A stretch of DNA of 63,190 bases, filler included, from Stramenopiles sp. TOSAG23-2 (Eukaryota): the NCBI GenBank assembly GCA_900128395.1. It is 8 parts of 8 records of this genome, joined end to end, with 100 filler letters (N's around TTAATTAATTAA, not from the genome) between each part and the next. Parts side by side here need not be neighbours in the genome. Positions count along the whole stretch, not along the records: positions 1 to 26,605 come from LT649431.1; 7 more parts are not named here. One strand, written 5' to 3'. The notes beneath the pieces are model-generated. The model saw only the letters and a list, made by a program, of their open reading frames with translations, had not been told where the DNA came from and ran no database searches. This document shows, one piece after another, positions 8,576-61,643 of the stretch (positions within the stretch are counted from its first letter, which is position 1; each line of letters begins with the position of its first letter). A program made the position numbers and the translations under genes.

Positions 8576-8641
8576 AGAGCAATACTTCCTATTAGAAAAT
8601 TTGAACGTCGTATCATATAATATTAATTTCGAGGTTTCATC

Positions 8642-10316: not shown

Positions 10317-10533
10317 ACAAAGCTTCGTACATTAATTCAATTAATGATGTATTATTATGACTCGAAGACCGAAGAGACGTTACGTTCGTATTTAAATATT
10401 TTAAAAAAAAATATATTCGTATTATTTTACGACTCGTACTACTTTTACGAATATAATTTTACCGCCGTGTATATTACCCTTCTGTCTCCTTACATGATAT
10501 AATTTCTACGAAGCCGTAAAATACTCTCCTTTA

Positions 10534-11718
10534 TTATTTCCACTCAATACAACTACTATCACCAATTGAGCGTTCCATACTCACATACCATTTTCTTAAC
10601 CTTTCATTTGTTTCCAATATTTCATTATACGTATCCATTCCTTTTAATGCACGAATGGTACCATATGTGTAAATATCTGCAATATCTGGTTGATTCCCAC
10701 CATGAAATGTACTATCATCACCAATTTCATTTAACCAAACATTTAATGCATCAAACAATGCCTCGCGTTCGTCCTCGATGCCATATTTCTTTTTGATCTT
10801 ACCTTGTGCAGCCCACATCGCTACTGGACCTAATACCCTGTTCATTGCACGTTGTGCAAAACTAAAGTGTGGAACATCATTGATGTAGGAAAATGCTTGC
10901 CAAGATTCTGAAAAATTACGGGTAATATTTGGAAATAAAAGTACAGCTAATGTTTTATTTGCCCAGCTTGCCCATTCCTTTGCTTTTTTGCCATCGTATA
11001 ATTTCTTCTCGCTGTTTGAAATCGAACCTGCTTTAGATAACATATCAATAATTTCATCGATGATATTCATGGAATCATTAATTTGAACTCCATCAATAGT
11101 TAATATTGGCACTTTTTTATATCCATCTATAGACCATGATTTTGTTTCTTCCTTTGACATTGGATTTACTTCCACACTTTTATATGGCACATTTTGATAA
11201 TCTAGAAGTGCCTTCACTGCATTGCAAAATGGGCATATTTTGTATTGATATAAAATAATTTCAGCTGTCTTGATATTACTATTTTCTGTCACAGGGGAAG
11301 TTGCAACAAGTATTTCTTCATTATTTCTTCCTTTTGTTGTTGTTGAAAATGCTGCTGCACTTCGTTTCATATTATTAGTAGTATTGGATGCCTCAGCACT
11401 ACTGTAGTAATAATTCATAGTGCCATAACTGCTTCCACATAATAATAAACCTGTTGATATGATATATGATGATTTTGTATTTGAATATTGATAATTACTT
11501 TTTTTACCATTTATTATATTATTGTTATTATTATCAGACAATATTGACATCCATTTCACTTGTTGATTCAATCTTGAATTATTATTATTATTATTATGAT
11601 TATTTTTACTACATCTTATTATATCACGTAAATAATTTTGTCGTCGATGATGATATTTGTTAATATTTCTCATGCATCCCTTCGCAATAACATTATTAAT
11701 CATCTTAGGTGCAATCAT
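10534..11718 (-). CDS. PTGES2: Prostaglandin E synthase 2-like glutaredoxin/GST protein
   Basis: LYQYKICPFC (CPFC motif), VEVNP, YKKVPIL, LFPNITR, FHGGNQPDIAD; long N-terminal targeting-like extension; first ATG at 11718. Confidence 0.9.
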   Translation of the reverse strand: MIAPKMINNVIAKGCMRNINKYHHRRQNYLRDIIRCSKNNHNNNNNNSRLNQQVKWMSILSDNNNNNIINGKKSNYQYSNTKSSYIISTGLLLCGSSYGTMNYYYSSAEASNTTNNMKRSAAAFSTTTKGRNNEEILVATSPVTENSNIKTAEIILYQYKICPFCNAVKALLDYQNVPYKSVEVNPMSKEETKSWSIDGYKKVPILTIDGVQINDSMNIIDEIIDMLSKAGSISNSEKKLYDGKKAKEWASWANKTLAVLLFPNITRNFSESWQAFSYINDVPHFSFAQRAMNRVLGPVAMWAAQGKIKKKYGIEDEREALFDALNVWLNEIGDDSTFHGGNQPDIADIYTYGTIRALKGMDTYNEILETNERLRKWYVSMERSIGDSSCIEWK

Positions 11719-11927
11719 CGTGATTATCACTCAATACGTATATATAGATATATTATGTTCCATCTTCTATACTTTCTATTTGTTTTGATTATCTTTATTC
11801 GAAAGAACAATTATTAATTAATGAAGTCTCGTCGCGGCGTGTATATAAAGTAAACTAATAATAATAATAAATAATTACTATACACTATATATAGAGAATA
11901 GTTGGAGGAAAATAAATACATTGAACA

Positions 11928-12392
11928 TACCTATAGAAGTAATAATAATAAAGCTGAAGAATCAATACCAAGTAACAACCATGCCGAAACGAAATTATGG
12001 ATTGTTAGACGTCGTCGCAGCGGTACGGGACATTAACCAACTGGGCGTTGGATATCGCGTTGCTAATTTATATGATATAGATTTGAAAACATATTTGTTT
12101 AAATTGCAAAAAAAAGATTGTCCTAAATTAACTTTGATTATGGAAAGTGGTGTACGGTTTACCTATAGAAGTAATAATAATAAAGCTGAAGAATCAATAC
12201 CAAGTAACAACCATGCCGAAACGAAATTATGGATTGTTAGACGTCGTCGCAGCGGTACGGGACATTAACCAACTGGGCGTTGGATATCGCGTTGCTAATT
12301 TATATGATATAGATTTGAAAACATATTTGTTTAAATTGCAAAAAAAAGATTGTCCTAAATTAACTTTGATTATGGAAAGTGGTGTACGGTTT
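11928..12392 (+). repeat. Exact 232-nt tandem duplication of the NEMF 5' end (probable assembly artefact)
   Basis: tacctatagaagt...tgtacggtt starts at 11928 and again at 12160; it creates a spurious truncated copy with ATG at 11981. Confidence 0.85.
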
Positions 12393-15300
12393 CATACGAC
12401 AAAATATGTACGTGAAAAGTCACCTGCTCCATCGCCGTTTTCAATGAAACTTAGGAAATATATCAGGACTAGGATATTATATTCATGCCAACAATTAGGT
12501 AGTGATCGAGTTGTTGATTTTTCATTTGGAAAAGGTGAAGCTTGTTATCATTTAATATTAGAAATGTATGACAAAGGTAATATTATATTGACTGATTATA
12601 CATATGAAATATTAGCTTTATTAAGATCGCATACATACGATGAAGAAACAAAGGTTGTTGTTGGTGGAATTTATCCTGTAGATAATTTAAAAGTTGTTCA
12701 AGACTCTTCTGGCAATAATAACGATTTGAAACCCCATAGCTCGCGATCAATAAAGGACGTAAATGAAACTCTTGTACAAGAATATCAAAAATGGTTATTA
12801 AAAATGAAAGCATATTATTTTGGTACTAATAATAATGACGATACTAACGGAGATAATAATAATAAGCTAAAGTTAGAAACAAAAGTTATTAATACACAAG
12901 AAATAGTTGATAATGATAAAAATAACAGTAAAGAAAGTAAAAATGGAGCGAAAAAACGTAGTGGTAGTGGACAGAAAAAGAAAAAAAATAAGAAGAAAAT
13001 TTCATTATTACAAATTCTTTTAAATCGTAATGATACATCATGTCCATATGAAATTGCTAAATATGGACCTGTTATTGTAGAACACTGCCTTCTGAGTGCA
13101 TCTATCGATGGTCGTATGGCAATCACAGGAGAATGGAATGGGTTAAATAGTGACGAATTAAATGGATCAACATCTCCAACAAAAACAAACTTACTAGATA
13201 ATGCTATTGGGGATAATAATGATATTAAAAATGAAAGGATTGAAATATATGACGAATTTTTGCCAATCTTATTGAAACAGCATGAGAACAAAACATATAA
13301 AACGTTTCCAACTTTTAACTCCGCTGTCGATGAATTTTTCAGTAAAAGCGAAGCGCAGAAAGCAGCTAAACGACATAATATGATTGAAGCTGCAGCAAAA
13401 TCAAAATTGGTCAAAATGAAAAAAGAGCAAGAAGACAGAATCCAAAGTTTAAAAGTCCAAGAGATATCATCAATTGAAAAAGCTCAAGCAATTGAAGCTA
13501 ATTATGATAATATTGATAAGGCACGTTTAGTAGTGAATTCCGCTATTGCAAATGGTATTGATTGGGAAGACTTGAAAGAATTGGTGAAGTTTGAGAAGTC
13601 AAGGAACAATCCGATTGCATCATTAATTGTGCAATTAAAATTGGACATAAATACTATTATATTAGATTTACCAGGTTGGGATGACGATGGCAATGAAAAA
13701 AAGATTCGTGTTCCTATAGATGTATCGATGACAGCTTATCAAAATGCACGTAAATATTACCAAACAAAGAAACAATTGAAAAAAAAAGTTATTAAAACTA
13801 AAGAAGCTGCAGAGTCATTTTTATCCAATGCAGAAGAAAATATTCAAAAAGAAATGGTACGAGCAAAGAATAAATTGGAATCTACTATAATACGACAAGC
13901 ACGAAAAATTTATTGGTTTGAAAAATTTGATTGGTTCATATCTAGTGAAAATTATCTCGTAGTGTTGGGGCGTGATATGCAACAAAATGAACAATTAGTG
14001 AAGCGGTACATGCGGAAAGGGGACGTGTATGTACACGCCGATGTTCATGGTGCCAGCTCATGTATTGTTCGAAATAATGATTTGAAAAAAGATATACCAC
14101 CATTAACATTGGAGGAAGCAGGGCATATGTGCATGTGTCGTAGTTCGGCGTGGAAAAGCAGAACAATAACTAGTGCATGGTGGGTCTACCACAATCAAGT
14201 CTCGAAAACAGCTCCAAGTGGTGAGTACTTGACTACTGGAAGTTTCATGATTCGTGGAAAAAAGAACTTTTTACGACCGTCACGGTTAGAAGTTGGATAT
14301 GGATTGCTATTTTGTGTTGATGAAGAGGATATACAACATCATGTAAAAGAACGGGTGGTGCGTGGATCTTTTGGCGCTGATAACGATGATGATGATGATG
14401 CAAGCGATGGGAATGGCAATGGTCAAAATAAGAAGCACGAACGTAATAATGACGACAATGAGAAAAATCACGCTGATAAATTACGTCGTTTTGAAAGAAA
14501 GCTGTTGCGAAAGCAACAAGAAGAGGAACAAGCAATACAAACAGCTGCAAATGAGGCGTATACTGAAAGTGTTGGTAATGATTCCAATGAGATAGATATA
14601 TCATCTATCGCTGGAATTAAAGATATAGAATTAAATGTTACCCCAGACGCAGATAATGCAAGTGATGGTAAAACTGAAAATATGGATTTTGAAACAGACA
14701 CTAAAAATAGTGTAGTTAACGAAATTTTAAATCGTAAACCTGGAATATCTAGATACCAACGTAAAGTAATGCGTGGAGAACGGAAGAAGAAGAAGAAGAC
14801 GAAAAGTAATGTTCTAGAAATCAATGATAATGACGAAGAAGAGGATGGTGATAATGATGATGATGGGGATCATTTGCTGGATGATTTGAAAAAAAGTAAA
14901 TCAAGAATCCACAAAAATTCTAATGTAAACGTTATAATTAAAAAGGAAAAAGTAAAAACGATACCTCGTGGGAAAAAAGGTAAATTGAAAAAAATTAAGA
15001 AGAAATATAAAGATCAAGATGAAGAGGAACGTCGTATTCGAATGAAAGCATTAGGAAATCCAATGCCAGAACCAAAGACCGAATCTGAGGTGAATTCCTC
15101 AATTGAAGTCGACGAGACAGGTGACAAAAAGAGAGTGGCAAAAGAATATAAAGATCAAGATGAAGAGGAACGTCGTATTCGAATGAAAGCATTAGGAAAT
15201 CCAATGCCAGAACCAAAGACCGAATCTGAGGTGAATTCCTCAATTGAAGTTGACGAGACAGGTGACAAAAAAGAGAGTGGCAAAAGTAAGAATAACAACG

Positions 15301-15758
15301 GGAAACGAAACAATAATCGTGTGAAACAATCAACAGTAAAGGTAGATGACAGCACGCCATTGGATTTACCTGAAGAACAGCTACGTGCCTTGACTGCGAC
15401 TCCTAGAGCAGAAGATACTATTCTATTTTGTCTACCTGTAAGCGCGCCATATTCCACGATGAGCAAATATAAATATAAAGTAAAATTAACACCAGGATCT
15501 CAACGGCGAGGTAGATCTTGCAAAGCTGTTTTGCAATATTTCTTACAAAATGTAAAAGAAGGAACAACAAAACGGGAGAAAGAATTGATAAGAGCAGTTA
15601 ATGATGCTGAAGCTATTGCTGCTATGGTAAGCGATGTTCAAATTAATACATCAAAAGCTGCTAAAATGTCTAAGAAAATGAACAAAGGAAAAAAACAGAA
15701 AGGTGGTGGTGGTGGTGGTAAAAAGAAAAAAAATGGTGGAAAGAAGAAGAAAAGGTAA
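12213..15758 (+). CDS. NEMF: NEMF/Rqc2 ribosome quality control subunit
   Basis: GYRVANLYD, ESGVRFH, FSMKLRKYIR, LILEMYDKGNIILTD, WFEKFDWFISSENYL, YVHADVHGASS, VSKTAPSGEYLTTGSFMIRGKKNFL, YKYKVKLTPG; start taken as MPKRNY at 12213. Confidence 0.95.
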   Translation: MPKRNYGLLDVVAAVRDINQLGVGYRVANLYDIDLKTYLFKLQKKDCPKLTLIMESGVRFHTTKYVREKSPAPSPFSMKLRKYIRTRILYSCQQLGSDRVVDFSFGKGEACYHLILEMYDKGNIILTDYTYEILALLRSHTYDEETKVVVGGIYPVDNLKVVQDSSGNNNDLKPHSSRSIKDVNETLVQEYQKWLLKMKAYYFGTNNNDDTNGDNNNKLKLETKVINTQEIVDNDKNNSKESKNGAKKRSGSGQKKKKNKKKISLLQILLNRNDTSCPYEIAKYGPVIVEHCLLSASIDGRMAITGEWNGLNSDELNGSTSPTKTNLLDNAIGDNNDIKNERIEIYDEFLPILLKQHENKTYKTFPTFNSAVDEFFSKSEAQKAAKRHNMIEAAAKSKLVKMKKEQEDRIQSLKVQEISSIEKAQAIEANYDNIDKARLVVNSAIANGIDWEDLKELVKFEKSRNNPIASLIVQLKLDINTIILDLPGWDDDGNEKKIRVPIDVSMTAYQNARKYYQTKKQLKKKVIKTKEAAESFLSNAEENIQKEMVRAKNKLESTIIRQARKIYWFEKFDWFISSENYLVVLGRDMQQNEQLVKRYMRKGDVYVHADVHGASSCIVRNNDLKKDIPPLTLEEAGHMCMCRSSAWKSRTITSAWWVYHNQVSKTAPSGEYLTTGSFMIRGKKNFLRPSRLEVGYGLLFCVDEEDIQHHVKERVVRGSFGADNDDDDDASDGNGNGQNKKHERNNDDNEKNHADKLRRFERKLLRKQQEEEQAIQTAANEAYTESVGNDSNEIDISSIAGIKDIELNVTPDADNASDGKTENMDFETDTKNSVVNEILNRKPGISRYQRKVMRGERKKKKKTKSNVLEINDNDEEEDGDNDDDGDHLLDDLKKSKSRIHKNSNVNVIIKKEKVKTIPRGKKGKLKKIKKKYKDQDEEERRIRMKALGNPMPEPKTESEVNSSIEVDETGDKKRVAKEYKDQDEEERRIRMKALGNPMPEPKTESEVNSSIEVDETGDKKESGKSKNNNGKRNNNRVKQSTVKVDDSTPLDLPEEQLRALTATPRAEDTILFCLPVSAPYSTMSKYKYKVKLTPGSQRRGRSCKAVLQYFLQNVKEGTTKREKELIRAVNDAEAIAAMVSDVQINTSKAAKMSKKMNKGKKQKGGGGGGKKKKNGGKKKKR
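15004..15286 (+). repeat. 141-nt near-exact tandem duplication inside NEMF (probable haplotype/overlap artefact)
   Basis: YKDQDEEERRIRMKALGNP...DETGDKK is encoded twice (15004 and 15145); copies differ by one C/T and one A in a homopolymer. Confidence 0.8.
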
Positions 15759-15920
15759 AAAAAGTTTGTACATCATATAATATATTTTTATAAATAATAT
15801 TGTGGGCATTATTAGAGAGGGGGTCGATAATATGCTTCATATGGTGTGTGTACTTTTAAAAAAAAATATGTATAATACTCCTCGTATATAATAAATGATG
15901 TACGTGATATATCTTCTTTA

Positions 15921-16262
15921 TTAAGTGGCGGCTGGTAAACACGTGCCGCCAGGATACTCCCATTGCGTTATTTTTAACTCTTCATTATAAAAATATGGAC
16001 GGCCACCTTGTGACGTATCTTTTTTCATAACCCATCCTTCCTTTAAGGGTGGGAATTGCAATTCTTGTCCTCTATTATTTGTGTTAAACCAAGTTTGCCA
16101 TGCAAATCCATCTTGTGAATTCATAAAGCCCGGCATATATTGTCCATACCACGCTATTACATTATCCCTATGTTTATAACCTTGTAAATGTTGTTTTCGG
16201 GATCCTTGTGAAGATTTCATTAAATACATATCACAAAAATCACAATAATATTTTTTCGGCAT
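15921..16262 (-). CDS. U1-C-type (matrin) zinc-finger protein with C-terminal WW domain
   Basis: MPKKYYCDFCDMYL...RKQH..G.KHRDNV..WY resembles U1 snRNP C; LKEGW...GRPYFYN...TQWEYP is a WW domain. Confidence 0.85.
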   Translation of the reverse strand: MPKKYYCDFCDMYLMKSSQGSRKQHLQGYKHRDNVIAWYGQYMPGFMNSQDGFAWQTWFNTNNRGQELQFPPLKEGWVMKKDTSQGGRPYFYNEELKITQWEYPGGTCLPAAT

Positions 16263-16739
16263 TTTTACTCGTTGTATATGATATATACACGTGCGCGTAA
16301 GTGTGTATATGTAGTATACGTATATGAATTAATTTATATATATATCGGGATAGGATGCTTCTACTATACATTAACTTTCATCATCACAATTATTATACTG
16401 ATTTATTGTTATTTTTTATTATTTTTAGGTGATGATTCTTCATTCAATCTCTGGCAACAATAAAAATAGATAAAAAATTATGTAATAATATTGGCTGGTA
16501 ATCTTTTTATGAGAGTGACAGTTAGGTTGCGGATTTATAGCATCTAAAAATTTAGTATAGTGAAGTATCTCCACCTGTCACTTAACATCTAATAGCATTG
16601 CACTCCCAAAATATATTACGTTTTGCCATTCGTAAATTATTAAAATTGGAATATACCATACAAATAAATTGACAAAATCGGATATTTAAATCATAAATTG
16701 CTATACTACTACTAATAATGTACCAAAATGGTCATTTTT

Positions 16740-19648
16740 TTAATCGCGTATTCTAAGCTCTTTTGCAACTGCTTTTCCTCTAATATTTTTATCACGATGT
16801 AATCGATGATAAAATATCTCTTGAATTTTTGATAATTTAGCTTTAATAGCATTTGTCATTTCTTTATTGATTTCGTGATAATATTTTTATCACGATGTAA
16901 TCGATGATAAAATATCTCTTGAATTTTTGATAATTTAGCTTTAATAGCATTTGTCATTTCTTTATTGATTTCGTGAATACGGAATTGTTTCGTTGACTTC
17001 TTAACAATATTTTGCTTCATACTATTTATATTTGCCAATGCATTTAAAATTTCAACATTATTCTCCATACTTTCAGTATCATCATCATTATTATTATTAT
17101 TATGGTCATCATCCTTCTCTTCCCCTACTATACCATGATCGAAATTGTATTGCTTTACTATTTTACTCAAAGCATTTGATACTAATGAAGACACCCAAAT
17201 AGCAGATATATTTGACACATATGCTTTTTCATTACCTTTAACTGGTGATTCAAGTATTGTATTCCATGGGGTATTGTTGCATATGTTTTGTATATATTCA
17301 ATATCTTGTTTCTGTTGTGTTATTGATGTATTAACAACAGATGCCAATTCTTCTTGTAATGATATAAGTTTCATGAAAGACATAGATTTGAACTGTTCCG
17401 CCTCATATAATTTGCTAACTCGATTACTTTCCATTTTTAAATTCTTGTTCGTTATTTGCAATTTAATCAGTTCATTTTTCATTTCTTTCATTTTTGGTAT
17501 TGTTTTAACGTTTAATTCCGTAGCTTGCTTCACCTTTTCCATATTTGCAACCATTTTTTCACTCATCTCACGCATTTGTTTATAACAAATCTCTTGCAAC
17601 TCTTCATAACTATTGTCTTTTTTAATAATTGCATTTTTAAAGTTTTCTATTTGTACATTCAAATTTTCAATTTCTTTTTTTTTATTTGACACGATATCTT
17701 CTAATTTTTGAATTTTTGTAGTAGCTGCATTCAGTTTGTCATCTAATTTCATGTTTGAATATTTTGCTTTGCTATATTCAGAATTCGTATCTCTCAGCTC
17801 CATGATAGCATCGTCGTATTTAGATTTTATAATGTCTGCTTCTTGTTTCAAGTTAGCTTTCGTGACGTCGCTTTCCACTAACGATTTTCGTAAGTTATTC
17901 TCACCAATGATAGATTGATTTAATTTCGTTGTTATATCGTTTTTCTCTTCGTTTAACGTTTCATTTACTTTTAAAGACGTATTTACTTTTTCAATTTCAG
18001 TTGCTAAGCTTTCCTCAACATTTTGTTTTGCCTTGTTCAGATTTTCAATACTTTCATTTAATCTTTCGATTTTGTTATTTTGAACTTTCATTTGAAGATT
18101 TTTTCTATCCACCGTTTCTTCAAGTACGGTTATATCCTTATTAGTTCTTTGTAAATGAGTTTGTAGTAGTAACACTTGTCGTTCCAATGCTTCCGCGCGT
18201 TGGGATTCCGTTGATCTATTGCGTATTTCTCTATCTAATTCTTTTTTCATTTCATTTTTCATAGATTTAATCGTACCAATTTCCATTTCCAATTTGTTCA
18301 TCATTGCCATTGCTCTTTGTTCTTTCCTCACGGCATCGTTTTTAATGCTTTTAAAGTCGCGTAATTGCGCACTTATATCCGCCCGTTTCATTTCCTCTTC
18401 TTTTATATCTAGTTTTAATTTTACTATGATATTCTCACTATCACGCAAATTGTTCACTGCAATTCTTTCACGTTTCCGTGCATTTAACATTTCTTCTTGT
18501 GCTACATCCAGCTCATTTTTCAAATGATCTATAGATCCTAAATGATACGTTATTTTACCATTTAAATTCTTAATTTCATCTATTTTGTTAACAAGCGTCT
18601 TATGTGTATCATCACGTTCATTTGTGCGTATTTGTAAATCAGATAATATTTTATCCCGAATGATTCCAGCATCGTGTAACCTACGTTCATATGATTTTAC
18701 TATAACCTCACGTTGTTCCACATAATCATGCTGTAGTGATGCAATCATTGTTTTATAGCCATCTCCTTCGCATTTTTCTAAAAGTGCATTAAAAACTTCC
18801 CAAATTTTTAATACTATTTTTCCACTACCACCTTGAATATTATTTGCACAATTATTACTAACTTCATCCAACATTTCATGAAAACCAAAACTATAGACAA
18901 ATAAAGCACGATAGACACGTTCTATTGTTTCATTAGATAAACCTGCTTTGCGTAAACTTTTTCGATCTAAACCAATTTTTTTTAAAAATTGTAAGTCATA
19001 TGATTCGGGTTGACTTTTAATTTTTTGTACCATGTTTTTTTCAATTGGTTTAATATCGGTTATTGCTTTATTAGCAAGCCATATTTCTGCTGCTTTGTCT
19101 TCATCCATTTTTTTATATTCATCAATAACATGTTTAGTGGCATATGAAACCCAACGTTCGTTTCCAACACCTACTGCAGATTGTTGCTGTTTCCTCTGAT
19201 CCACTAAATTAATTGCAGCATTATTCGTAAATAATCTTTCAATCGGTCTCTGTATTTGATTTTGTATTGCTGTGCTAACTTTTGCAAGTTCGTGTGGGTT
19301 TTTAGCTGAAGCTGGGCGTTTTTTTTTTGTCAATAGAAATCGTCCATACATACCACTAGCTTTTTCCTCAGCAACATTTCTATTATAATGTTTACTATTA
19401 TTATTGTTATTACTACGTGAAAATGTTTTGAAAGTTATATTTTTAGTTCTACGATTATTTTTTATACTAGACGAAGATTTTGGACGAGTTGGATTACGAA
19501 TGTTACTCTTTTTTTTCATTTTTTTAGACATATTGTTATTGTTTTCATATTCATTATTGTTTTTTTTTATGTGAACACCAAAAATTGGCAAAGTTGGATT
19601 TTCGTTTAATTTTGAGACAAAAGGATTTTTTCGTTGAGATGATGCCAT
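16740..19648 (-). CDS. Long coiled-coil protein of unknown function
   Basis: 930-aa ORF with extended heptad-rich region; removing the 98-nt duplication restores the end ...DKNIRGKAVAKELRIRD* with stop at 16740-16742. Confidence 0.75.
16781..16976 (+). repeat. Exact 98-nt tandem duplication (probable assembly artefact) frameshifting the coiled-coil gene end
   Basis: taatatttttatcacgatg...tttcgtga starts at 16781 and again at 16879. Confidence 0.85.
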
Positions 19649-20343
19649 CTGATAGAAGCAATCCTTTTGTAAAAATGTTATTAATTTTCTTTTTCTTCTG
19701 GGATTACGTGGTTGTGCGTTGATGTGCGCATGTGCAATGATACAAGTAGCTGTTAAAGTCTTTTTTCTTATTGTTTTAAGAATCCTAAGAAAGTCTTTGC
19801 GGTATAAATATGAAGTTGCAATAATAAGTTTAATGACTACACTGTAATATTTATATATTAATACTTTAACTTATAAAACAATTATAACTGCTTTTCAACG
19901 ACGACCAGCTGGCACTGCTGGACTGCATATAAAATCGGATATTCTGATATATTTTCAGCCAAAATACATTGGCCATTTTTGGATTTTTGGATTTCCATAT
20001 TATCGAATAACACCCCCTGTGTCTATACTATAATGCTATATACCTGCTATCAGAATCGCCGACTATAAGGCTGTGTGGTGTATTATAGTTATTACACCAC
20101 AAAGCTATAATAATAGTGGTGTCTCAGCCAGTCAGTCTAATACTTCTTCCTAATGTTGAATAAACAAACAAACAAACAACAACAACAACAAAAGGCAAAT
20201 TTTTAAATTCAAAAAAATAAGAAGCATATTACGGCGTGAATATCGTTGTAATTAACCAGATACAAAAGAATCATACCGAGAACAAGTAACATTTTCTAGC
20301 GGCTATAGTAGGAAAAGTATAGTATCTATAGTAGAATTGAATT

Positions 20344-23300
20344 ATGGCACAAGTAGTTGATAATGAGGGCGTTGTTCCTGGTGGGACAAAATATGATATT
20401 GAATATGATACACAAAATTTAAACAGTAAAAAAAAGTTTGAACCAAGCATTTGCTCGAAAATGTGTATAGCATGGCCTAGTCGATATATTATCAAAGGAT
20501 ATTATAATCCATTGAAAGCGGAGGATATGCCACCGTTATTTGATTCTCATAAAACACGAAGTACTTTACCAAAAGCATTTAAAGCATGGGACGCGCAAGT
20601 TGATACATGGAAAAAAAATAAAAAAAATGCATCAAGACCATCAGTACAAAAACTTATTTTAGGACAATTATCTTGGACTTTCTATGTTGGGGCTATATTT
20701 GGAATTTTTGCTGGGATATTGAATTGTGCTGGAAGACCAATACTTCTAAAATTGGTTATACAATGTTTCATGCCAAATTCCATTTATTCAGAACAAGACA
20801 TGATATATATATTAATTTTCTTTGCCTTTGCTGTTATTGGTGAAGGTTTTTGTAAGTAAAGTCTATATTCTCCCAATCCTAACAAGAAATTCTTCTCTAA
20901 CAAATTTCTCATAATTTCATACGCTACGCTTTACACAGGTAAAACTCAAGCTGTAAATCTCATTTCCACGGAAAGTGGAACCCAAACGTTATCATATATT
21001 TTCTCTTTGATAGAGAGGAAAACGGCAACTACCTCCAATGCACGACCAAGTAATGCGGAGAAAGAGCGTGAAAAACAACGACAAATGAAAAAAGTCCATG
21101 GATACCAAAATGCTCCAACAGGAGGTAGGTCTTCTGAAGCTAATTTAGTTGGTAATGATTGTTTGCAAACGTATGACAATATGAGATTTGCTGCATATTC
21201 ACCTAGTAATGTGAGTGGATTAGTTGCTGGGATTGTTGCATTATTTTATATATTAGGCCCTATACCGGCCTTAATTGGAATTAGTGTATTGACAGTATGT
21301 TTGATATTAAACCGTATACTTAGTAAATTTGCAGGGTATGCAGCAGACCGTGATTTAAAAGCTGCTGATTCACGATTAACAGTAATGAGAGAAGTTATTG
21401 AATCTATTGGGCCTGTGAAATTTATGTGTTGGGAACAACCTTATCTTGATACATTGAAGAAAAAGCGAGATGAAGAAGTGACGCATATTATGTGTTATAG
21501 ATTACTCAATATTATTTCATTGACTATAGCACGGACTTCACCAATTTTAGCTACGTGTTGTACATTTACCTATGTCGCATTGCAAGGATTGCCAATGACA
21601 CCTGATATTGTTTTCAGTGCGTTAGCTGCATATATGTCATTACGTTTGCCATTGATTGGTATACCAAATATGTTCATACAATACCAAGTAGTTAATATTT
21701 CATGTGATCGTATTGGTGATTATTTACTGAGGCCAGATTTTACGCCATTGCCAGAAAAAACTGATTTGAAAGGGTCGGGAAAGGACGATTTTGTCGTTGA
21801 TTTCCAAAATGCATATTTATCATGGAATCCAATCGACGATAGCGTGGATGGAAATGATAATAAAATTGCAACAAAAGAATCCACTGCAAAAGATGTTGAA
21901 TTGTGTATAATACGTGATTTGACATTGCAAGTCAAAGCTGGTGATTTGATCGGTGTATGTGGACGAGTTGGATGTGGAAAATCAACTTTATTAAATTCAT
22001 TGCTAGGTGAGACATATATTATAAAAGGTACTGGTGCTGCTAACAGGGATATTGGTTATGTTCCACAACGACCGTTTGTATTATCCGGCACGATTTTGGA
22101 AAATATAACAATGGGAAGACCATTTAATGCGATGCAAGTAGATGAGGCAATTAAAGCAGCTGCTTTTGATACAGACTTGGCATCTATGCCTGCCGGATTA
22201 AAGACGGAAATTGGCGAGAGAGGCACTACGTTGTCCGGTGGTCAAAAACAGCGATTAGCGATTGCGCGTGCAATTTACACAAATCCAACAATATTATACA
22301 TGGATGATGCTTTAGCTGCTGTAGATGGAAAAGTTGCCTCTGTAATATGGAACAATGTTTTGTTGGCAAGGAAAAAAAAAAACTTAGCGACAGTGATTTC
22401 CTTAAATCAGATTCAGTTTCTACCAGAATGTGATAAAATTGTCTTTTTACGTACCGATGAACCTGCACTTATAGGTAGATTTGATCATTTAGAAGACATA
22501 AATGCTGAATTTAAAGAGAAGCAGCTGGTGGATATCCTTTAATAGGCCTTTATTTGCTGATTATGCTTTCGACGTATGCATGTTTTTGTTTAACTGATAT
22601 TTGGTTGGCAGGATGGGTATCAGTAAATAATACATTATCATTGGAGACGCGATTGGTAGGTTACATCTGCTTTTCGGTTGGACAAGCTCTTTTAATGGGG
22701 ATTGCATCGACTCAAGAGGCATATATGGCGAAAAGAGCATCTAGTAATGTTCATGAAATGCTCTTGCATAGGTTACTTCACGCACCATCTTCATGGTTCG
22801 AAGCTACGCCAAGTGGGGAAATAATTAGTCGCTTTAGTGGGTAGGTAAAATTCTATTCCTCTAAACTTAAAGAAGGATATCCTTTCTAACACATCACTCA
22901 TTCATACGCTACGCTCCACAGTGACCTTGCAACAATGGATAAAATGTTTCCTTTATTTCTTGATCACCTATGCCATATGTTTATGAATATATTTGCATTA
23001 TCTATTACGATTAGTATTATTATTCCGACTTTAATCCCGGTATTGTTTGTTGGTCTATTTGTTTATCAATTTCAAATTGATGCGGTGGATAGATCCAATC
23101 GAATGGCAAAACGACAAACTATAGCAGCACTTTCGCCCATCATGACCACATTAGTTGAAACAGCAAATGGCCGTACAGTTATTCATGCAATGAATTTCCA
23201 ATCATTTTTTTGTAAAAAACAGTACAAAAATATCGATCGTTGGAGCAATTTCAATCACTTTTCAAGCAGCACGTTTAATTGGGGTATATGGATGACTCAA

Positions 23301-24356
23301 ATCCTAGCAGTTTTCTTTTCTATTGGCGCAGTCGTGTTAATTGCTGTTCAAAAAGAAAATTACACAGATGTTGCGTTAATTGGTGTTGCGTTGAATTATT
23401 CGTTTTTGCTTCCATATTTCCTTGCATTTTTCAGCCAAAATAGTATGATGGTTAGGATGTTCTTCACTGCTGTTGAACGTTTGATGAAGTATGACGAGTC
23501 TACTATGCCACAAGAACCTGATTGGGTATTGAAAACGGATCCTAAGAAAGGTACGTGGCCAACGAATGGTACATTGGAATTTAAAAACGTCGAAATGGCG
23601 TATCGGGAAGGTTTACCACCAGCTATTAGAGATGTAAATGTTAATATTGATAGTGGAAAACATATTGGTATTGTCGGGCGAACAGGTGCAGGCAAAACGT
23701 CATTCATTGTGGTCTTGTTCCGTATAGTGGATTGTCAAAAAGGTAGCATTAAATTAGATGGAAAGGAATTAGATAAATTAGGGTTGCACACTGTACGTAG
23801 AGCACTTGCTATTATTCCACAAACTCCATTATTAATACCTGGTACATTAGCACATAATTTAGACCCATTCGATAAATATTCTGAAAATAAATTGATCGAA
23901 GTGGTTGAGAAAGTTGGTTTAAAAGCCAATGGATTAAAAGAAAAAGCATCAGAACTTAGTGTTGGTCAACAACAATTGATGGCATTGGCAAGATTGTTGT
24001 TACGGGAAGGTTCTGATCGCCCGAAGGTCATTGTCATGGATGAACCAACTGCTAATATCGACGCGCAAACAGATGAAATATTGCAAAAAGTAATAAATGA
24101 GGAATTTAAAGGTATTACTATGTTGACAATTGCACACCGTTTGAATACAGTAATTGGATCTGACGCTATGATGGTAATGGACAGTGGTTTGGTGAAAGAA
24201 TACGACTCGGCTCATAATTTATTGCAAAAGGATAAAAGTCTGTTGGCAACTATGGTAGATGCTTTAGGTAATGGTGTATCTAATTCATTAAAAAGTCTTG
24301 CAAAGGAAGCTGCAGATGAGACAAAAAGAAAGTATAAAAGGGAAATGATGATTTAA
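20344..24356 (+). CDS. ABCC/MRP-type full ABC transporter; exons 20344-20851, 20939-22840, 22922-24356; frameshift or deletion near 22518
   Basis: TMD1, NBD1 (GRVGCGKS, LSGGQKQR, YMDD), TMD2 (SRFSGDLATMD across intron 2) and NBD2 (GRTGAGKT, LSVGQQQL, VMDEPTA, TIAHRL). Splicing both GT-AG introns keeps frame. The NBD1-TMD2 linker is missing and the frame shifts between EFKE and AAGG. Confidence 0.9.
20852..20938 (+). mobile_element. Spliceosomal intron, Introner-like family copy 1 (87 nt, phase 1)
   Basis: gtaagt...ctctaac...cacag; removal gives GEGFCKTQAVNL in frame; sequence is similar to introns at 22841 and 54832. Confidence 0.8.
22841..22921 (+). mobile_element. Spliceosomal intron, Introner-like family copy 2 (81 nt, phase 2)
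   Basis: gtaggt...ttctaac...ccacag; removal gives SRFSGDLATMD; shares ttcatacgctacgct with copy 1. Confidence 0.8.
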
Positions 24357-24613
24357 AGTGCTTGAGTATTTGATTAAATATCACTATATTAAATGAATAT
24401 TAAAAAATAAAAATGTAAAACAAAATTAATATGATACTCGTACGAACAGTCGTATGATATTAAAAATATATATCATATCATACGACGTATATTTGAAAAG
24501 ATTTTTTATCTTCATATATATCATATAATTTATTTTTTATAGTGTTTTTAAATACACGATACGTTCGTAATATTTTATATAAACAACTCTTACTAATGAA
24601 TTTAAATAATACT

Positions 24614-26506
24614 CTACTCTATCTTTTGCCTTTTTGATTTTCCAGGTCTGCCTTTTTGGTATTTCATCATTTTCTTCATTTCAACTTCATTTTTACCACT
24701 TCCACTTGCTAATAACATATTTTTATCAATAATAATAACACATTCTTCGCGATGTATTGCATCATACACTTTATTTAAACTAACCCGTTCATATCTTTGG
24801 TTATTGATACATAAAATCAAATTTTTAAAACTTTTGTTTGATGGTCTTGTTTTCATGTTTGTATAAAACCAAATACGAATCCAAAATTCTGTATTATTGT
24901 AATTTGATTGGAAAAAATTGTCTTTATTTATATTTAATTGTATGATTTCTTTTTCAATATTTTCCTCTTCTTCTTCTTCCGATTTATTTGCAAACGTAAC
25001 ATTGCAACCACCATTTTTATACCATGATTCAAAAAATTCATGCCATTGACTACTTAACATTTTAGTATATTGAACATATAAATACAATCCTTTTAATATT
25101 TTATCATCAAATTGATTTATTTGCGGTATCAATATATCCCTCATTTTGCCTCTTCCACTCCAATCTGGTGTTGAATCAACTAAATGTGGTATTTCAAAAC
25201 CATCTGCATGTGTAAATATCATTGTTTTATTCATCTCTAACATTGGTCGTACCAATTGTATATTTTCATCTTCGATACTTATATTATTCATAGCAATCAA
25301 GTCATCGTAATGAATATTTTTACTTAGATTACTGAAAATATTTTCAAAACAATCATTTTGATTATGCCCTAAAACAATAGGGCATTGAAAGTGCTTATAA
25401 AATGCAAATCTAATTCTTCGCGTTATATCTTCATATACAGCACGAAATGAACTACTACGTTCACGCTTGATTTCATCTATAAATCGTATATACAATTTGC
25501 AGTTCAATTTATTTGCCCAATACTTCAGTAGTTCAACCTCCTTTTGTACGCAAGAGCGATTGTTGTAACATATATGTAACATGATCATTTCATAATTGTT
25601 ATCTTCTTCTTTGCATATTTCATTGATAATTAAACTTGCTAACATGGAATCCACGCCTCCAGAAATACTAACAGCTATTTTATTATTTACAATTGTTGAT
25701 TGCTTTATCATATTTAATGTTTTCCTAAATTCTGATTTTAAAATTTTCATATATTTCGTTTTTTCATTTACAGTATATACAGGATACTTCGGTTTTTCTA
25801 ATATTTCAGGATATTGAGCAGGTGCGGCAATCTGATTTGACATTGTTGCTGACGGCGATGATGGCATCAATTGCTCCTCCGAAAATGGTGATGGTTGTGC
25901 TAAATCGTTATATCCAATATTTTTTTCTTTAAATTCATTAATATCTAATATTGTTGCTTTTAAAAATCTTAAATACAAAGCATTTGTAGGATTTATTTCC
26001 AATAATTGATATAATTTTTTCAATGCAAACATTTTTAACTTTAAATTTTTGTTATGGCGTATGGCTAATAAAACAAATACTTTTTTCCATGGTTCTGATT
26101 TTTCATAAGCTGCAAAATTAGCATGTAAAATATGAAATGCAATATGTGTCGCGAAACGAAATGCTAATTTTTTGTGAAATGTATTATTCGATATTTTTTC
26201 ACATGGATGTCGATAAATTTGATCATAGTGTAACAATAAAGATAAATTAATATTGATATCATGAGGTTGATACGTTAATTTTGTATTTGTTGAAATCGGA
26301 AAGGTATCAATACGCTGATGGCTAAACCAACCTTTTTTATTATTACCCCAATATTCAATGATAGATTCCAACAACCATATTCCTTGGTTGTGTATTGTGT
26401 TACTGCTCTTGTTGTTATTATTATCAACTATTTGATTGTAGTATACAATTGAATAAAAATTTTGCAACATTGAATGGTGCAATGTGTTATTATTAATAGT
26501 AGCCAT
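24614..26506 (-). CDS. TilS/MesJ-like PP-loop tRNA-modifying ATPase with N-terminal DUF924-like domain
   Basis: SISGGVDSM PP-loop, HICYNNR, YEDITRRIRF, LGHNQNDCFEN, LVRPML, DSTPDWSGRGKMRD; the N-terminal WFS...YDQIYRH...LAIRH pattern resembles DUF924. Confidence 0.8.
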   Translation of the reverse strand: MATINNNTLHHSMLQNFYSIVYYNQIVDNNNNKSSNTIHNQGIWLLESIIEYWGNNKKGWFSHQRIDTFPISTNTKLTYQPHDININLSLLLHYDQIYRHPCEKISNNTFHKKLAFRFATHIAFHILHANFAAYEKSEPWKKVFVLLAIRHNKNLKLKMFALKKLYQLLEINPTNALYLRFLKATILDINEFKEKNIGYNDLAQPSPFSEEQLMPSSPSATMSNQIAAPAQYPEILEKPKYPVYTVNEKTKYMKILKSEFRKTLNMIKQSTIVNNKIAVSISGGVDSMLASLIINEICKEEDNNYEMIMLHICYNNRSCVQKEVELLKYWANKLNCKLYIRFIDEIKRERSSSFRAVYEDITRRIRFAFYKHFQCPIVLGHNQNDCFENIFSNLSKNIHYDDLIAMNNISIEDENIQLVRPMLEMNKTMIFTHADGFEIPHLVDSTPDWSGRGKMRDILIPQINQFDDKILKGLYLYVQYTKMLSSQWHEFFESWYKNGGCNVTFANKSEEEEEENIEKEIIQLNINKDNFFQSNYNNTEFWIRIWFYTNMKTRPSNKSFKNLILCINNQRYERVSLNKVYDAIHREECVIIIDKNMLLASGSGKNEVEMKKMMKYQKGRPGKSKRQKIE

Positions 26507-26516
26507 AATGAATATT

Positions 26517-26555
<39 letters not shown>

Positions 26556-26605
26556 CCAAGATAATGAAAGAAATTTATAACGCACGGCAATAGATAAAAC
26601 AGGTA

Positions 26606-26709: not shown

Positions 26710-27063
26710 AACGCATCACGTATCATATTTAGATACATACAAATATGTTTGAATGATTGTTTTGTGTAACGTATGTATGATTTATTAAATGTGTACTCAC
26801 TTTTGACAAATACAATTAGTATATAAGTAGCATTATGATGTTAGGATCAGAATAGCATTGTAAATCATGTATATTGAGTTTGCTACTTTTAGGTTTATAA
26901 AAAGGTAAAGTATGCAATTCAAACATTACAATATTCCAAAATAGGTTTGTATGTATCTAAATATGATACGTGATGCGTTGTATTGATGTAAACATTGTTC
27001 CAAAATAGGTTTGTATGTATCTAAATATGATACGTGATGCGTTGTATTGATGTAAACATTGTT
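26710..27063. repeat. 34-bp inverted repeat plus 64-nt tandem duplication at contig start
   Basis: aacgcatcacgtatcatatttagatacatacaaa (26710-26743); its reverse complement occurs at 26946-26979 and 27010-27043. Confidence 0.8.
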
Positions 27064-32897: not shown

Positions 32898-33750
32898 AGC
32901 ACGGTATGGTATAGTTTGAAAAAAAATAAAAGCTGCGCCATATTATTTAAAAAAATATGATATCATACTATTTTAATTGTGAGATATGAGATAAGATGTA
33001 ATTATGATATCGTCCAGCACGTTCAACGAAGGAGTATGGAAGGATAGAAACCTACTTGTGCTTGTAGAGTATTAGAGTGCAGACGTGCATTACAACTTTC
33101 CTACATAGTGTAGGATTAACTCCATTTCTGAGATACAGTATTGAGCATAGTATTTACAGCAGGAAGGAGAATATTGACATACTATTGTGCGAAATACATA
33201 CATTATTGCCTCAGTTACAGTATTTCTTTTGGAGAGTATAGGAATTATCATTTTTGAGTATGATTAAATACTGCAAGTTGACACCGTCTATTTACCTTCA
33301 TAATTGGTATTCTCTTTTTTTATTCTCTTTTTTTATAAAATATACGAAGCGTAAGAAATATCAACATCCTAGTGTGAGATATGATAGATATTTATTGCCT
33401 GTGGGATGGTTAAAATCTAAGTTATTAATACTACACACGCTTAAATACTCAATCTCAGGAAATAATATATCATATATATTTGTTAATATTCTCTCAATCT
33501 AAGAAAAGGATTTACTCCTACACTATTAATAAAGCTCTCATGCGCCGCCGCAAGCTACGAGCACAAGTAGGTCTGAATCCAGCATAACACACTCGATGAA
33601 AGTGATGTAAAATATGCGTAAATTTAATTATATTTGATAATATCTATGATAGTGTTCCCACATCATATAAAATAAATATACATATAATAGTAAAAGAGAA
33701 TTTTTTATATATATATATAGTATAATTAGATTTTAACCATATATATAGTA

Positions 33751-37645: not shown

Positions 37646-40600
37646 ATGGCACATAATGATTTAAGTTGGACAGTTTCTGACGATGAAGTTTCAAATGATG
37701 GAGATGATGAAAACAATAACATTGATATTATTATTGATAAAGATTATAATAATAACAATATATATATTGGTGAAGAAGAAATGGTCAAGTCGAAATCACC
37801 TTTACGAGTTGATATTCAACCAGGCAATACGGTAGATAGCAAACCTAGGTTAACGCTGCCTCATTCGACAGTACCGGGTGGTGCTGTACCATCGTCTTCA
37901 CCTTTTCCATCATCACAAACAACTGCACTACCTATCGTAGGGCCACCGCCACCACCACCAGTAGCAGCGTATTTTAGTGGAAATTTTCAACAGCAGCAGC
38001 ACCACCACATGATGATGATGCCACCACCGCTGCCACCACCAACATATTATCACCAGACACTTACGCCAACGATGCAACAACAATATTTTAACCATTTACA
38101 CAATAATCAAGCTGCTGGAAGTATGAATGCGGGTGCGCAACAACCATACCCTTCGCCGCACCAGCAGCAGCATCCAACAACAACAACGTTACATCATAGC
38201 ATAGCTGCTGATTCACCTATATCTGAGTCTGGTGAAAATGAACTTGAAGCTAGTACAAGATATGTTAGTAAATGGAGTCCAAGCTTATTTAACACTAGTA
38301 TATCCAGTGATCGAAAAGCAACAACTTTAATATCCCCTTTACCAATGCAATACCAAGACAATAATAATAACAAGAAAAAGAAGGAGACTGTTGGCAGCAA
38401 TTCGAAAGAATCATCAGTCATTTTTCTACCACAACAAACAATAGGTGATGCAGATGCCATATCTTCCATGGAATCATATTATCAAGCAGAAATTGAACGT
38501 TTGAAATCTCAATTGGAAACCAAGTCGAGAAGCAGCAATTTGAAAGAATCGGCAAATAGAGTTATCCTGGATAATTCCATCGACAGTGAAGATGTTTTAG
38601 AAACTAGCATTCCCATGGCGGCGGCGGCGGATCATCAGATCAATCAACTAGAATCTAAAATACGCTTTTTACAAGAAGAACAAGAAAATAAATATATATT
38701 ATATGAGAAAGAAAAAAATAATTTACAACATTTATTAGACGAGTCACGCCAAACTATTGCAAATTTAAAAGCAGCTGCTGCCGAAGACACAGAAGAATCT
38801 TCTATAAAAAACAGAAACGTTATGGAAAAGCTAGAAGATACATTTCGTAAACGTGAAGAAAGTTTAGAAAGTTCAATGAAAGATCAAGGAATTGCATTGC
38901 AAAAAGCACTTGCAAATGAAGTACGTTCAATTATTTATTTATATTTTTTTGCCTTTATTCTTCTTTTTACCATCACCAAAAACAAAAACTAACAAACATT
39001 TTCAATTATACATTTTTCTATATTTTATTTATGACTTCCTACCTTTTCTTCTTTGCGTCATATTTATACACTTGAAAATAGGCAACTGTACAAGCAGCAT
39101 TTAATTCATTGAAATTAGAAAAAGATAAATTAGAAAACGAAGTCAACAAATGGAGCAGTTTAACAAATCGTTTTCGCATGGAACGTGATGATTTAGCTGA
39201 GCAAAATACTGAATTGAAACGGCAATTGAATTTAGATTCAACAAATTTATCTCAAACAGAATATTTAAATCAAAAATTACAAAATGAAATAACAAATTAC
39301 AAGTCTATACTAGAGCAAAACGAACGTATTTTACGAACAGCAATGGACAAAGAAGAAACCTTAAGAGGTACTGTTTACAAGCTGCAAGAGCAAAATAAAG
39401 AATTAGAAACGGTAATATTGAATTTGCGTCGTAATTATGATATGAACATACGCAATCAAGAAATGAATGATAATTACAGCTTTAATCATTCATCTCAAAT
39501 GGATTATCAACTGCAACACCACCACCAGCGGCAGCTGTACGATGCAAAAAAACAGCTCCAACAATCCACACAACCACCACGGCAGCAAGCGAACCATCTA
39601 TCTTTATCCCCATCATCAATTACCAATCGCAAAGATTTAAAGCAACGATCTACAACAAATTTACTATATCATCATGAACATCAAGCATCGACACGCAAAA
39701 ATTATCAAAATGATAACGAGATTGGAAATGACAACAATGGTAGGAGAAACAATAACGATATGCGAAATGCATATGATCGTAGAAACAATATCGGTGGTGG
39801 TGTTATGGGGCGTGAATTTAGTGAAAACAACCGATACAATGCAATATCACCAAGTGGAAATTCCATGGTGAGTGTATTAGGGAAAAAATCCCTTCGTGAC
39901 TCTTCGCCACAACAATTTAGAAATCGTGGAAAAGTATCTGCGAAAGTAGCGACTGGTGGTAAACGAACAAATGATAGAATTTTTCCATCCTCATTAATTA
40001 ATAATATTTCTGCCACTAATACTATTAGTAATAAAAATAAAAATATCAATGGTACTGCTACTGATAATAAAGCAATAAAGCAAAACAAGTCAATTATAGA
40101 ATCAAGTATTTTCCCAATTGGTAGCTATCATATTGAAGATAGTAATACTGATTTAAACCATCAAAATAAAAACGAAGAGGCACATAGGAATGCAACAGAT
40201 GCTACAACTACCACTACATTAACACTAAAAAGTGAGAAAGAACTTATTGAAGAAGAAGCGCACGGTGCTGCCGTAAAAAATAGCAAAGATAACACTGCCA
40301 ACGTGAACGTGAATATACAACCTTCATCTTCTATAATCTCATTTCAAGAAGCTATGGAAAATGCTAGAAGAAAAAAAGCTGCTATTGCTAGTGCTGCTAT
40401 ACCTAGCGGCGAACGATCTTCTTCCTCATTTTCAATATCAACACCACGGAAGCAAGCAGCTACATTCGCAGCAAAACAAAATCGTCCAAATTTTAAAATC
40501 GAAGATCCTAAATCTTCAAGAGTAAAACCAATTGCATTGTTAACAGAAGAAGACAAACGCCAAGTGCGTTTACAACGCGTAAAACGGGCAGAGGCGGCAC

Positions 40601-53451: not shown

Positions 53452-54947
53452 ATGAATAATAATAATAATAATACATTTAATAACGGAACGGTATCCCCTT
53501 CATCAGTTGGTATAAATTCTTTCATTGATACTTTTTGTGCCGTGAATCAATATTCATCGCTAGGAAACGAAGAATCACGTGGTATTTCATTTTCATTGGA
53601 AAAATTTACGCCATGTTTTAATGATTTGATTGTTATTGGAGGTAGTGATATCTTTGTTATTATTTTTGGCATTGTTCGTTTGTATTATTTATATTCAAAC
53701 AAATTTAAAAAATATAAAATGAAACAGCCAACAAAAACTTTCCAAATTTTAAAAATTGTTTTATCGTTTATCGCAGCAATGGTATCATTAGTGCAATTGA
53801 GTGGTCGTATTGGTGCTACAGAGCAGACGCTTGCGCCATATGAATACGTTTCATTTGCACTTAGTTTATTTGCATTTCTATTTTTAGGTATTTTATATTT
53901 AATTGAATTGCAACAAATTGAATTAAGGGGTGCATGGATGTTGAATTTTGTTGTACTCCTTGAACTAGCAGGCCACACCGTGAAGTTGTATTATTTAATA
54001 GAATTGCTGGAAAAGAAAAGTAATAATACATCTGCTACTATTTATTTTACTGGTGTATTTATCTTGAAATACATTTGCGTTGCTGTTTTAGGATTACTTG
54101 CATTGTGTTACATTCCATCTGATAAACAATTTACAGAAATTTTCAATTTGGATGGAAATCGTTTAACCGAGGCAAATAATGAGAATGATTTACTTGTTGA
54201 TGATGAAGGTTTTACGAAGCATGTATGTCCAGAACAAAATGCAAATATTTGTTCCCGTTTGACATTTAAATGGATGGGCCCATTAATGAAACTTGGGCAT
54301 GAAAGGCCTTTAGAAAAAGAAGATGTATGGATGCTACCACAAAAACAATCTGCGCAAGTATTACAAGATGCATTTTTAAGAAATTGGAAATATGAGCAAC
54401 AATTTACAGAAAAACCATCATTATTCCGTGCATTGCGAAAAACATATATTAAACCATTTATTGTAGCTGGTTTTTTTAAGATTTTTAATGATGCCTCTCA
54501 ATTTGTTGGGCCATTGTTTATCGGATTGTTCATACAATTTATTGCAAGTCAAAGTACAGATACACCTATGCCCCAATCATTGGGTTATGTTTATTCTTTT
54601 TGTATTTTTGGTGGCCAATTAATTGGTGCATTAGCGGAAAATCAATATTTTCAAACAATTATGACAACTGGTCTCAATGTAAGATCGGTTTTGATATCCT
54701 CTATATTTAAAATTGCTTTGACATTAAGTGCAAAAGGTCGACATGGTAGAAGCGCTGGAAAAATGGTAAATTTAATGAGTAGCGATGCGGAAGGGTTGCA
54801 ATCCGCTGTTCAAGGGTTATGGAATGCATGGGTACGTAAAAGTCTATTTCCCTAAACCTAAAAAAAAGTATCCTCTCTAACACACATCACCTCCACAGTC
54901 TGCGCCTATACGTATCATTGTAGCACTTATATTATTATATAGCCAAC
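53452..54947 (+). CDS. Second ABCC/MRP transporter, long form with TMD0; 3'-partial; intron 54832-54898
   Basis: TPCFND, CPEQNANICSRLTFKWMGPLMKLG.ERPL.KEDVW, FKIFNDASQFVGP, ENQYFQ, GKMVNLMSSDAE; after splicing WSAPIRIIVALILLYSQ. Confidence 0.92.
54832..54898 (+). mobile_element. Spliceosomal intron, Introner-like family copy 3 (67 nt, phase 0)
   Basis: gtacgtaaaagtctatttccctaaacctaa...tatcctctctaacacacatcacctccacag; removal restores the conserved W-SAP motif. Confidence 0.8.
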
Positions 54948-61543: not shown

Positions 61544-61643
61544 NNNNNNNNNNNNNNNNNNNNNNNNNNNNNNNNNNNNNNNNNNNNTTAATTAATTAAN
61601 NNNNNNNNNNNNNNNNNNNNNNNNNNNNNNNNNNNNNNNNNNN

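Follow-up and report, generated by a model that had tools for sequence, protein, structure and literature searches.

The 63,190-base window considered here (the whole stretch of DNA that was analysed, from the Stramenopiles sp. TOSAG23-2 assembly GCA_900128395.1) consists of eight contigs with N spacers between them. At 33% G+C it is gene-dense, its open reading frames (ORFs) are long and uninterrupted, and it contains four to five introns in total in a genome that is otherwise intron-poor. Three of these introns, here called I1, I2 and I3, are copies of one family and form the subject of this work. I1 and I2 interrupt gene 1 (20344-24356), an ABCC transporter gene whose product has no TMD0, and I3 lies in gene 2 (from 53452), which encodes an ABCC transporter with TMD0. 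The placing of the third intron on another contig, claimed in an earlier note on this DNA, agrees with the make-up of the window from eight joined contigs. Public contigs L076 and L071 carry gene 1 at 97-99% identity and gene 2 at 99% identity, respectively, and the spliced models derived from them are stop-free, with lengths of 1363 and 1681 residues. The L071 model of gene 2 has four introns, namely I3 and three from outside the family.

The positions of the three introns (Table 1) are as first described, each starting with GT and ending with AG, and the phases of 1, 2 and 0 given for I1, I2 and I3 are likewise confirmed. The three are alike along their length, with a mean column identity of 76% over 87 alignment columns, and the 14-base motif common to I1 and I2 is exact; I3 is without this 3′ motif. 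The two proteins align colinearly at 28% identity, and in this alignment I1 follows residue 169.33 and I2 residue 892.67 of gene 1, while I3 follows residue 461 of gene 2; the sites are non-homologous, as had been proposed. A combined pattern of donor, TCTAT and branch-site motifs has exactly three matches in the window, a result not reached in any of 100 shuffles, and a hidden Markov model (HMM) of 67 family copies, run with filters off, scores the runner-up place in the window at 8.3 bits against 48.9-80.3 bits for I1-I3. Local alignment scores among the three introns are 27-34, compared with a maximum of 15 against eleven non-family introns (33 pairs) and of 16 against 1200 shuffles. The earlier note had held that a likeness no higher than that between random introns would speak against a family; the likeness we find is clearly higher. 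The intron at 38921, already considered unrelated, does not match the family model. Three donor-like sites, at 27062, 45082 and 48056, were examined as further copies and are not introns, and a weak match to an HMM of the three introns at 33486-33559 (E 0.038) is intergenic repeat DNA without a GT start. A search of the window against Rfam gave no match.

Table 1. Positions of the family introns, the motifs of I2, the comparator intron and the exons of the two host genes in the window.
Feature	Position	Strand	Length (nt)	Phase	Remarks
I1, family intron, ABCC gene 1	20852..20938	+	87	1	48.9 bits; consensus identity 0.71 (diverged)
I2, family intron, ABCC gene 1	22841..22921	+	81	2	80.3 bits; consensus identity 0.90
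I3, family intron, ABCC gene 2	54832..54898	+	67	0	50.1 bits; consensus identity 0.64
I2 extended donor, GTAGGTAAA	22841..22849	+			family form GTAAGTAAA
I2 branch-site motif TCTAACA	22885..22891	+			
I2 family-specific 3′ motif TCATACGCTACGCT	22902..22915	+			no splice signal; outside the selecting pattern; about 70-90% conserved
Comparator, non-family intron	38921..39081	+	161	0	family model gives no match
ABCC gene 1 exon 1	20344..20851	+			
ABCC gene 1 exon 2 (TMD1, NBD1, start of TMD2)	20939..22840	+			266 nt missing at 22519
ABCC gene 1 exon 3 (rest of TMD2, NBD2)	22922..24356	+			
ABCC gene 2 exon 1 (TMD0, start of TMD1)	53452..54831	+			
ABCC gene 2 start of exon 2	54899..54947	+			contig end cuts exon

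Public metagenome contigs, scanned with the donor/TCTAT/branch pattern, yielded at least 119 loci. The HMM of the three window introns gives full-length matches in 85 of the 119 loci listed (101 matches), and the HMM of the wider family gives 114 matches in 91 of 120 sources, comprising 90 loci among the matches listed and the window itself. To be picked as a primary copy, a locus had to have its donor and branch motifs intact, as required by the pattern, of which TCTAACA forms part; same-site copies from different samples were merged before the sites with resolved ends were counted. There are at least about 84 distinct family sites with unrelated flanks, made up of 69 sites with resolved ends and about 15 counted by eye. 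The family first proposed from three introns is upheld and extended, to introns of about 80 nt that are alike end to end at all these sites in unrelated genes. As a control, the pattern gives nine matches in 596 billion bases of prokaryote genomes and one in viral contigs, none of which exceeds 11.1 bits on the family HMM, whereas family matches reach 16-76 bits. The remaining 29 of the 119 loci among the matches listed are non-family, and represent chance matches or another repeat. A different conserved repeat, unrelated to the intron family, matches the pattern in about a dozen contigs of a single metagenome (L005, L010, L017, L061, L062, L066, L090-L093, L102). Separately, contig L075, with 45% G+C, contains a 58-nt GT..AG stretch with the family donor, TCTAT box and branch motif, which may represent a related short intron family in another, GC-richer organism.

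Contigs of two DNA runs (X3 and X14) and two RNA runs (X15 and X16) were compared with positions 6606-26605 of the window, and here there is an independent sign of multiple copies. The match of 20 X3 and 39 X14 contigs ends exactly at 22921, to be followed by unlike sequence, 17 X14 contigs begin their match at the I2 branch motif, and the depth in the bin containing I2 is several-fold above that of neighbouring bins. Single contigs can also hold several copies at different flanks, with four to five on L013 and four on L021, alongside the three of the window. Copy density is similar in the 63-kb window (three copies) and in the flanks of the public loci (21 secondary copies in 535 kb), and extrapolation to a genome of tens of megabases would give a copy number in the region of a thousand.

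The same comparison provides evidence for splicing. One RNA contig of X15 and one of X16 lack precisely the 81 bases of I2 (GT..AG), which confirms its splicing in two metatranscriptome studies, and the number of DNA contigs of X3 and X14 with I2 removed is zero. At I1 the RNA contigs gave no usable cover. For I1 and I3, splicing is predicted from restoration of the reading frame and from gap-free alignment to paralogues. Removal of I1 leaves a frame that is open for at least 149 and 150 codons on its two sides, and the alignment between genes 1 and 2 is free of gaps at all family intron junctions. In protein searches with gene 1 exon 2 and gene 2 exon 1, every ORF returned (P0121, P0124 and P0125) continues into an intron, and there is no spliced form among them. 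Two of these ORF-based gene calls, P0121 and P0124, terminate within family introns and serve as a warning for annotators.

A detailed alignment of 67 copies shows that the likeness runs from the first to the last intron base, and that the flanks have neither a consensus nor a target motif. The consensus is 80 nt long, nearly every position is 70-99% conserved, including those outside the selecting pattern, and the mean identity to the consensus is 0.82. Family introns are mostly 71-96 nt in length, with a median of about 83 nt, while the eleven non-family introns span 87-161 nt. The CTAAC core is invariant in all 67 copies, although TCTAACA belonged to the pattern by which copies were selected. 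Together, the extended donor GTAAGTAAA, the branch site TCTAACA about 30 nt before the acceptor, and the acceptor CACAG make up the signals of the cassette. The element is the whole intron, bringing its own donor, branch site and acceptor.

Neither a target site duplication (TSD) nor a terminal inverted repeat (TIR) had been noted for the three copies, and this holds over 67 sites. TSD matches at k = 2-8, whatever the offset, are as frequent as in shuffled pairings, and the GTAA that flanks I1 alone is a one-off; the ends of the consensus, compared by eye, are not complementary, and there is no consensus pairing. The ‘compensated mini-palindrome’ that the earlier note described in I1 and I2 turns out not to be a feature of the family, with all six pairs present in only 8 of 67 copies and pairing no better than in controls slid by 1-3 columns. 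Nor did we find a stable fold among the 67 copies, for which the mean minimum free energy is -2.9 kcal/mol, the mean z is +0.77, no copy has a z below -2 and the alifold consensus is empty. By this measure the family RNA is less structured than its shuffles.

Some sites have alleles whose introns differ by 8-12% even though their exons are 99.8-100% identical, so that copies undergo the same decay as ordinary introns. Among the window copies, I1 and I3 are the older or the more decayed ones, the 3′ motif having been lost by I3, and several of the introns counted as ‘non-family’ resemble decayed or interrupted copies. Two examples of change after insertion stand out in the public contigs. At L042:4779-4928 about 70 nt have been inserted in the middle of a family copy, resulting in a 150-nt intron. 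At L096:849-925, and at this site on L100 and L113 as well, the donor of the copy is gone and a new one about 150 nt upstream seems to have taken its place, giving an intron of about 230 nt.

The copies are scattered over unrelated genes. Precise removal restores a long sense-strand frame at 69 sites among the matches listed, with both flanks open for at least 27 codons at 67 of them; the two exceptions, L008 and L011, have mutated acceptors and an uncertain 3′ end. A further 20 matches likewise lie between sense ORFs. Phases 0, 1 and 2 are represented by 20, 18 and 29 of the 67 copies, similar flanking proteins occur in only 15 of 2211 site pairs (mostly overlapping windows of one gene), and the exact site is common to one pair only, namely I2 and a copy in the ABCC paralogue L081. 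The likeness between copies in the same gene does not exceed that between random pairs (0.696 against 0.716, permutation p about 0.82), so there is no sign of local hopping. Unrelated, non-family introns (n = 11) coexist with the copies in the same genes, and give no match to the family model.

These results enabled us to propose, with a probability of roughly 0.85, that I1, I2 and I3 are all copies of a single introner-like element, an intron cassette of about 80 nt that is complete in itself. The pooled sites show that copies of this cassette have entered protein-coding genes at many unrelated positions in an AT-rich, intron-poor, uncultured marine protist. As the whole insert is removed exactly by the spliceosome, each copy leaves the mRNA unchanged; such removal is observed for I2, and the exact restoration of the frame suggests that it extends to the other copies.

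Several observations weigh against this reading. No insertion event has been caught, and mobility is therefore deduced from the pattern of copies: among the matches listed, an intron-less DNA allele is spanned by no contig at any of the 69 spliced junctions, and the two DNA runs likewise hold no such contig at I2. The set of copies was pooled across metagenome contigs that stem from near-identical populations, in place of a single genome assembly. Selection by pattern biases the sample against decayed, unselected (intergenic) copies, with only about 21 matches being free of this bias, and the splicing of I1 and I3 is a prediction. The proposal of the earlier note that the introns were gained recently stands in part. 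The I1 site is intron-free both in L081, a 1450-residue ABCC paralogue 46% identical to gene 1, and in the protein P0122 (44% identity to gene 1), which is uninterrupted across the I1 and I2 sites, and I1 looks like a gain specific to gene 1. For I2 a recent gain is less certain, since L081 carries a family copy (L081:1781-1863, minus strand) at the exact I2 site and phase, as its sole intron; I2 represents either a gain made in parallel with that in L081 or an old position that has received a new sequence. In P0122 the ORF breaks off five codons past the I2-equivalent site, and in P0128 about one codon before the I3-equivalent site, at which P0127, a close relative of P0128, is continuous; each of these three proteins may be DNA- or RNA-derived.

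Given a real family, we consider spread at the RNA level, at about even odds, to be the most likely route, on the strength of a pattern that is sense-only, genic-only, exact and without transposon hallmarks. In this model, an excised intron would be reverse-spliced into a transcript, the intron-bearing transcript would be converted to cDNA, and the cDNA would recombine into the gene. Such a route would jointly explain the lack of TSDs and terminal repeats, the sense-only orientation and the lack of intergenic copies. A serious alternative, which we rate as rather less probable, is that the same family spreads as DNA, in the form of a very short non-autonomous transposon that leaves no TSD and has no terminal repeats. 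Insertion would then occur anywhere and in both orientations, with selection keeping the sense copies in exons while decay and deletion in a compact genome erase the others. According to the sections of the introner survey available to us, most introner families outside the ascomycetes bear at least one DNA-transposon signature, and families with neither of the two signatures occur, for example in Micromonas pusilla (PMC9860276). The selection by pattern described above, which disfavours decayed intergenic copies, also speaks for such a transposon, as does an intergenic repeat of the miniature inverted-repeat transposable element (MITE) kind at 33784-34048, which indicates that DNA elements are active in this genome. 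Against it, no antisense or intergenic copy occurs among the 114 family matches listed, most of which were selected by pattern but which include the approximately 21 that were not, even though ORFs of at least 120 codons leave 21% of the 541,807 bases examined uncovered. Together with the missing TSDs, TIRs and target motif, this leads us to somewhat favour reverse splicing over DNA transposition.

It is also conceivable, if improbable, that the positions are old and only the sequences young, with existing introns being overwritten or homogenised through gene conversion or through re-insertion at exon junctions. The identical site and phase of I2 and the L081 copy, in proteins that are only 46% identical, fit this well, as do two sulfatase-like paralogues with family copies 6 alignment columns apart and the distant relatives in which the ORF ends 1-5 codons away from the I3 or I2 site. 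One orthologous pair (L070:325-404 and L068:3501-3580, a single case) has the copy at the same site with 96% identical introns and 89% identical exon flanks, the intron being better kept than its synonymous-rich flanks. However, the I1 site is intron-free in both L081 and P0122, gene 2 has none of the sites of gene 1, and there is no excess of phase 0. Same-gene copies are no more alike than random pairs, and the 8-12% divergence between introns of alleles with near-identical exons argues that these sequences are not generally held constant. In fungi, moreover, parallel gains of introner-like elements at occupied positions are described in the consulted part of PMC4457414.

Far less likely is an explanation without any mobile element, in which the likeness reflects the unusually strict and extended splice signals of an intron-poor genome. 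In its favour, conservation of the donor and branch motifs is strong and introns are scarce in the genome, but the likeness spans positions that carry no splice signal, including the 14-base 3′ motif outside the selecting pattern. When the donor, acceptor and branch motif are stripped away, I1-I3 still have mutual scores of 15-22, against a mean of 9.0 and a maximum of 15 with non-family introns, and eleven other introns on the same contigs do without the family sequence. Duplication of ABCC genes together with their introns, suggested by the fact that both host genes in the window encode ABCC transporters, is refuted for the three window copies by their non-homologous sites, by exon flanks that are unrelated at the DNA level and by the presence of the family in dozens of unrelated genes, and would be possible only for I2 and its counterpart in L081.

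The origin of new spliceosomal introns is an old and open question, and introners are, to our knowledge, the only source of introns that works at genome scale. The present family offers a clean test case for RNA against DNA spread of introners, being unusually small, self-contained and free of every DNA-transposon hallmark tested. A more far-reaching and tentative suggestion, to which we give slightly less credence than to DNA transposition, is that the element is an RNA-propagated intron outside the fungi that also re-occupies the same junctions in paralogues, since exon junctions are the natural substrate of reverse splicing. If this were true, it would account for the sense and genic distribution of the copies, for the missing DNA-transposon hallmarks and for the I2 site held in common with L081, and some ‘conserved’ intron positions would be young in sequence.

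The region 20300-24400 is found in many seawater and marine metagenome runs, and in six marine metatranscriptome runs from several studies, which makes the host a widespread marine eukaryote that is apparently uncultured. With the host this common in the seawater datasets of many studies, the presence or absence of single copies could be tracked across ocean populations without culture. The best named relatives of the host RPN7 protein, among them a EukProt entry, oomycetes and plants, have an identity of only about 47-54%. Relatives P0002-P0004 are at 74-90% identity.

Some further features of the window deserve mention. Gene 1 lacks 266 nt at 22519 (between 22518 and 22520) that are present in the public contigs L076 and L109; the missing stretch encodes the NBD1-TMD2 linker and has short direct repeats on both sides. 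Its absence gives rise to the apparent frameshift and the stop at 22542. Every RNA and DNA contig compared with the window also breaks at 22519, and the gap is probably an assembly or amplification deletion and not the mark of a pseudogene. The intergenic MITE-like element at 33784-34048 has near-perfect inverted arms (29 nt at 100% and 26 nt at 88%) about 150-200 nt apart, with a third, diverged copy of the arm about 800 nt upstream (33206-33270), and is unrelated to the intron family. At 26940-27062, on the minus strand, an intergenic direct tandem duplication of about 60 nt adjoins a donor-like GTATGTAAA and is no intron. A possible second non-family intron of 142 nt (60227-60368, GTACGT...AATAG, with a branch-like motif) sits just upstream of the DUF7899 ORF at 60328-61599; the frame upstream of it is open for only 57 codons.

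A comparison with known introners helps to place the family. In the portions of the survey by Gozashti et al. (2022, PMC9860276) on which we draw, an introner family is defined as having at least four copies in one genome, in hosts that are not paralogues, with introns that are similar from end to end; the similarity must come as close as about 5 exonic or 10 intronic bases to each boundary, and family median lengths are 30-654 nt. Here we find similarity from boundary to boundary, hosts that are not paralogous, and real spliced introns, as seen in RNA for I2 and indicated by the reading frame for the others. In these respects the family agrees with that definition; its copy number of about 84 sites comes from pooled contigs and not from one genome, with up to four to five copies on a single contig and three in the window. 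The survey took in 520 Tara Oceans genomes, and the family may already be catalogued there. Of the 15 papers listed by a literature search on introners in marine stramenopiles (MAST) or in stramenopiles, none mentions introners.

The MITE-like introners of Micromonas pusilla, Aureococcus, Symbiodinium and Chrysochromulina resemble the present family in being multi-copy makers of introns in marine picoeukaryotes that leave the mRNA unchanged. As far as the consulted text of the survey describes them, MITE-like algal introners have TSDs of 3-9 bp and/or TIRs, with one splice site often derived from the TSD (PMC9860276), whereas here both splice sites lie within the element and a TSD was tested for and is absent. 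Closer still are the families without TSD or TIR, such as some of those in M. pusilla and the ‘direct insertion’ drawn for Alternaria, which are also alike end to end and free of transposon hallmarks (PMC9860276); from what the same portions of the survey report, nothing known separates the non-ascomycete families of this type from the one described here.

The introner-like elements of Dothideomycetes provide the remaining comparison, again as they appear in the parts of the sources that we consulted. Fungal introner-like elements are described as longer than regular introns and as stable in their predicted secondary structure (PMC3609843), whereas the family introns here are about 80 nt against 87-161 nt for non-family introns, and are less structured than shuffles; the host of the Dothideomycete elements is an ascomycete, and here it is a marine protist. 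The similarities are nevertheless considerable. In both, the whole intron is the element, with all splice signals and with no TSD or TIR (PMC9860276), and in both there is a strong genic bias and a decay into ordinary-looking introns (PMC9860276, PMC3609843). Parallel gains at positions occupied in relatives are on record for the Dothideomycete elements (PMC4457414), and it is for these elements that the RNA route of reverse splicing has been proposed (PMC9860276, PMC3609843).

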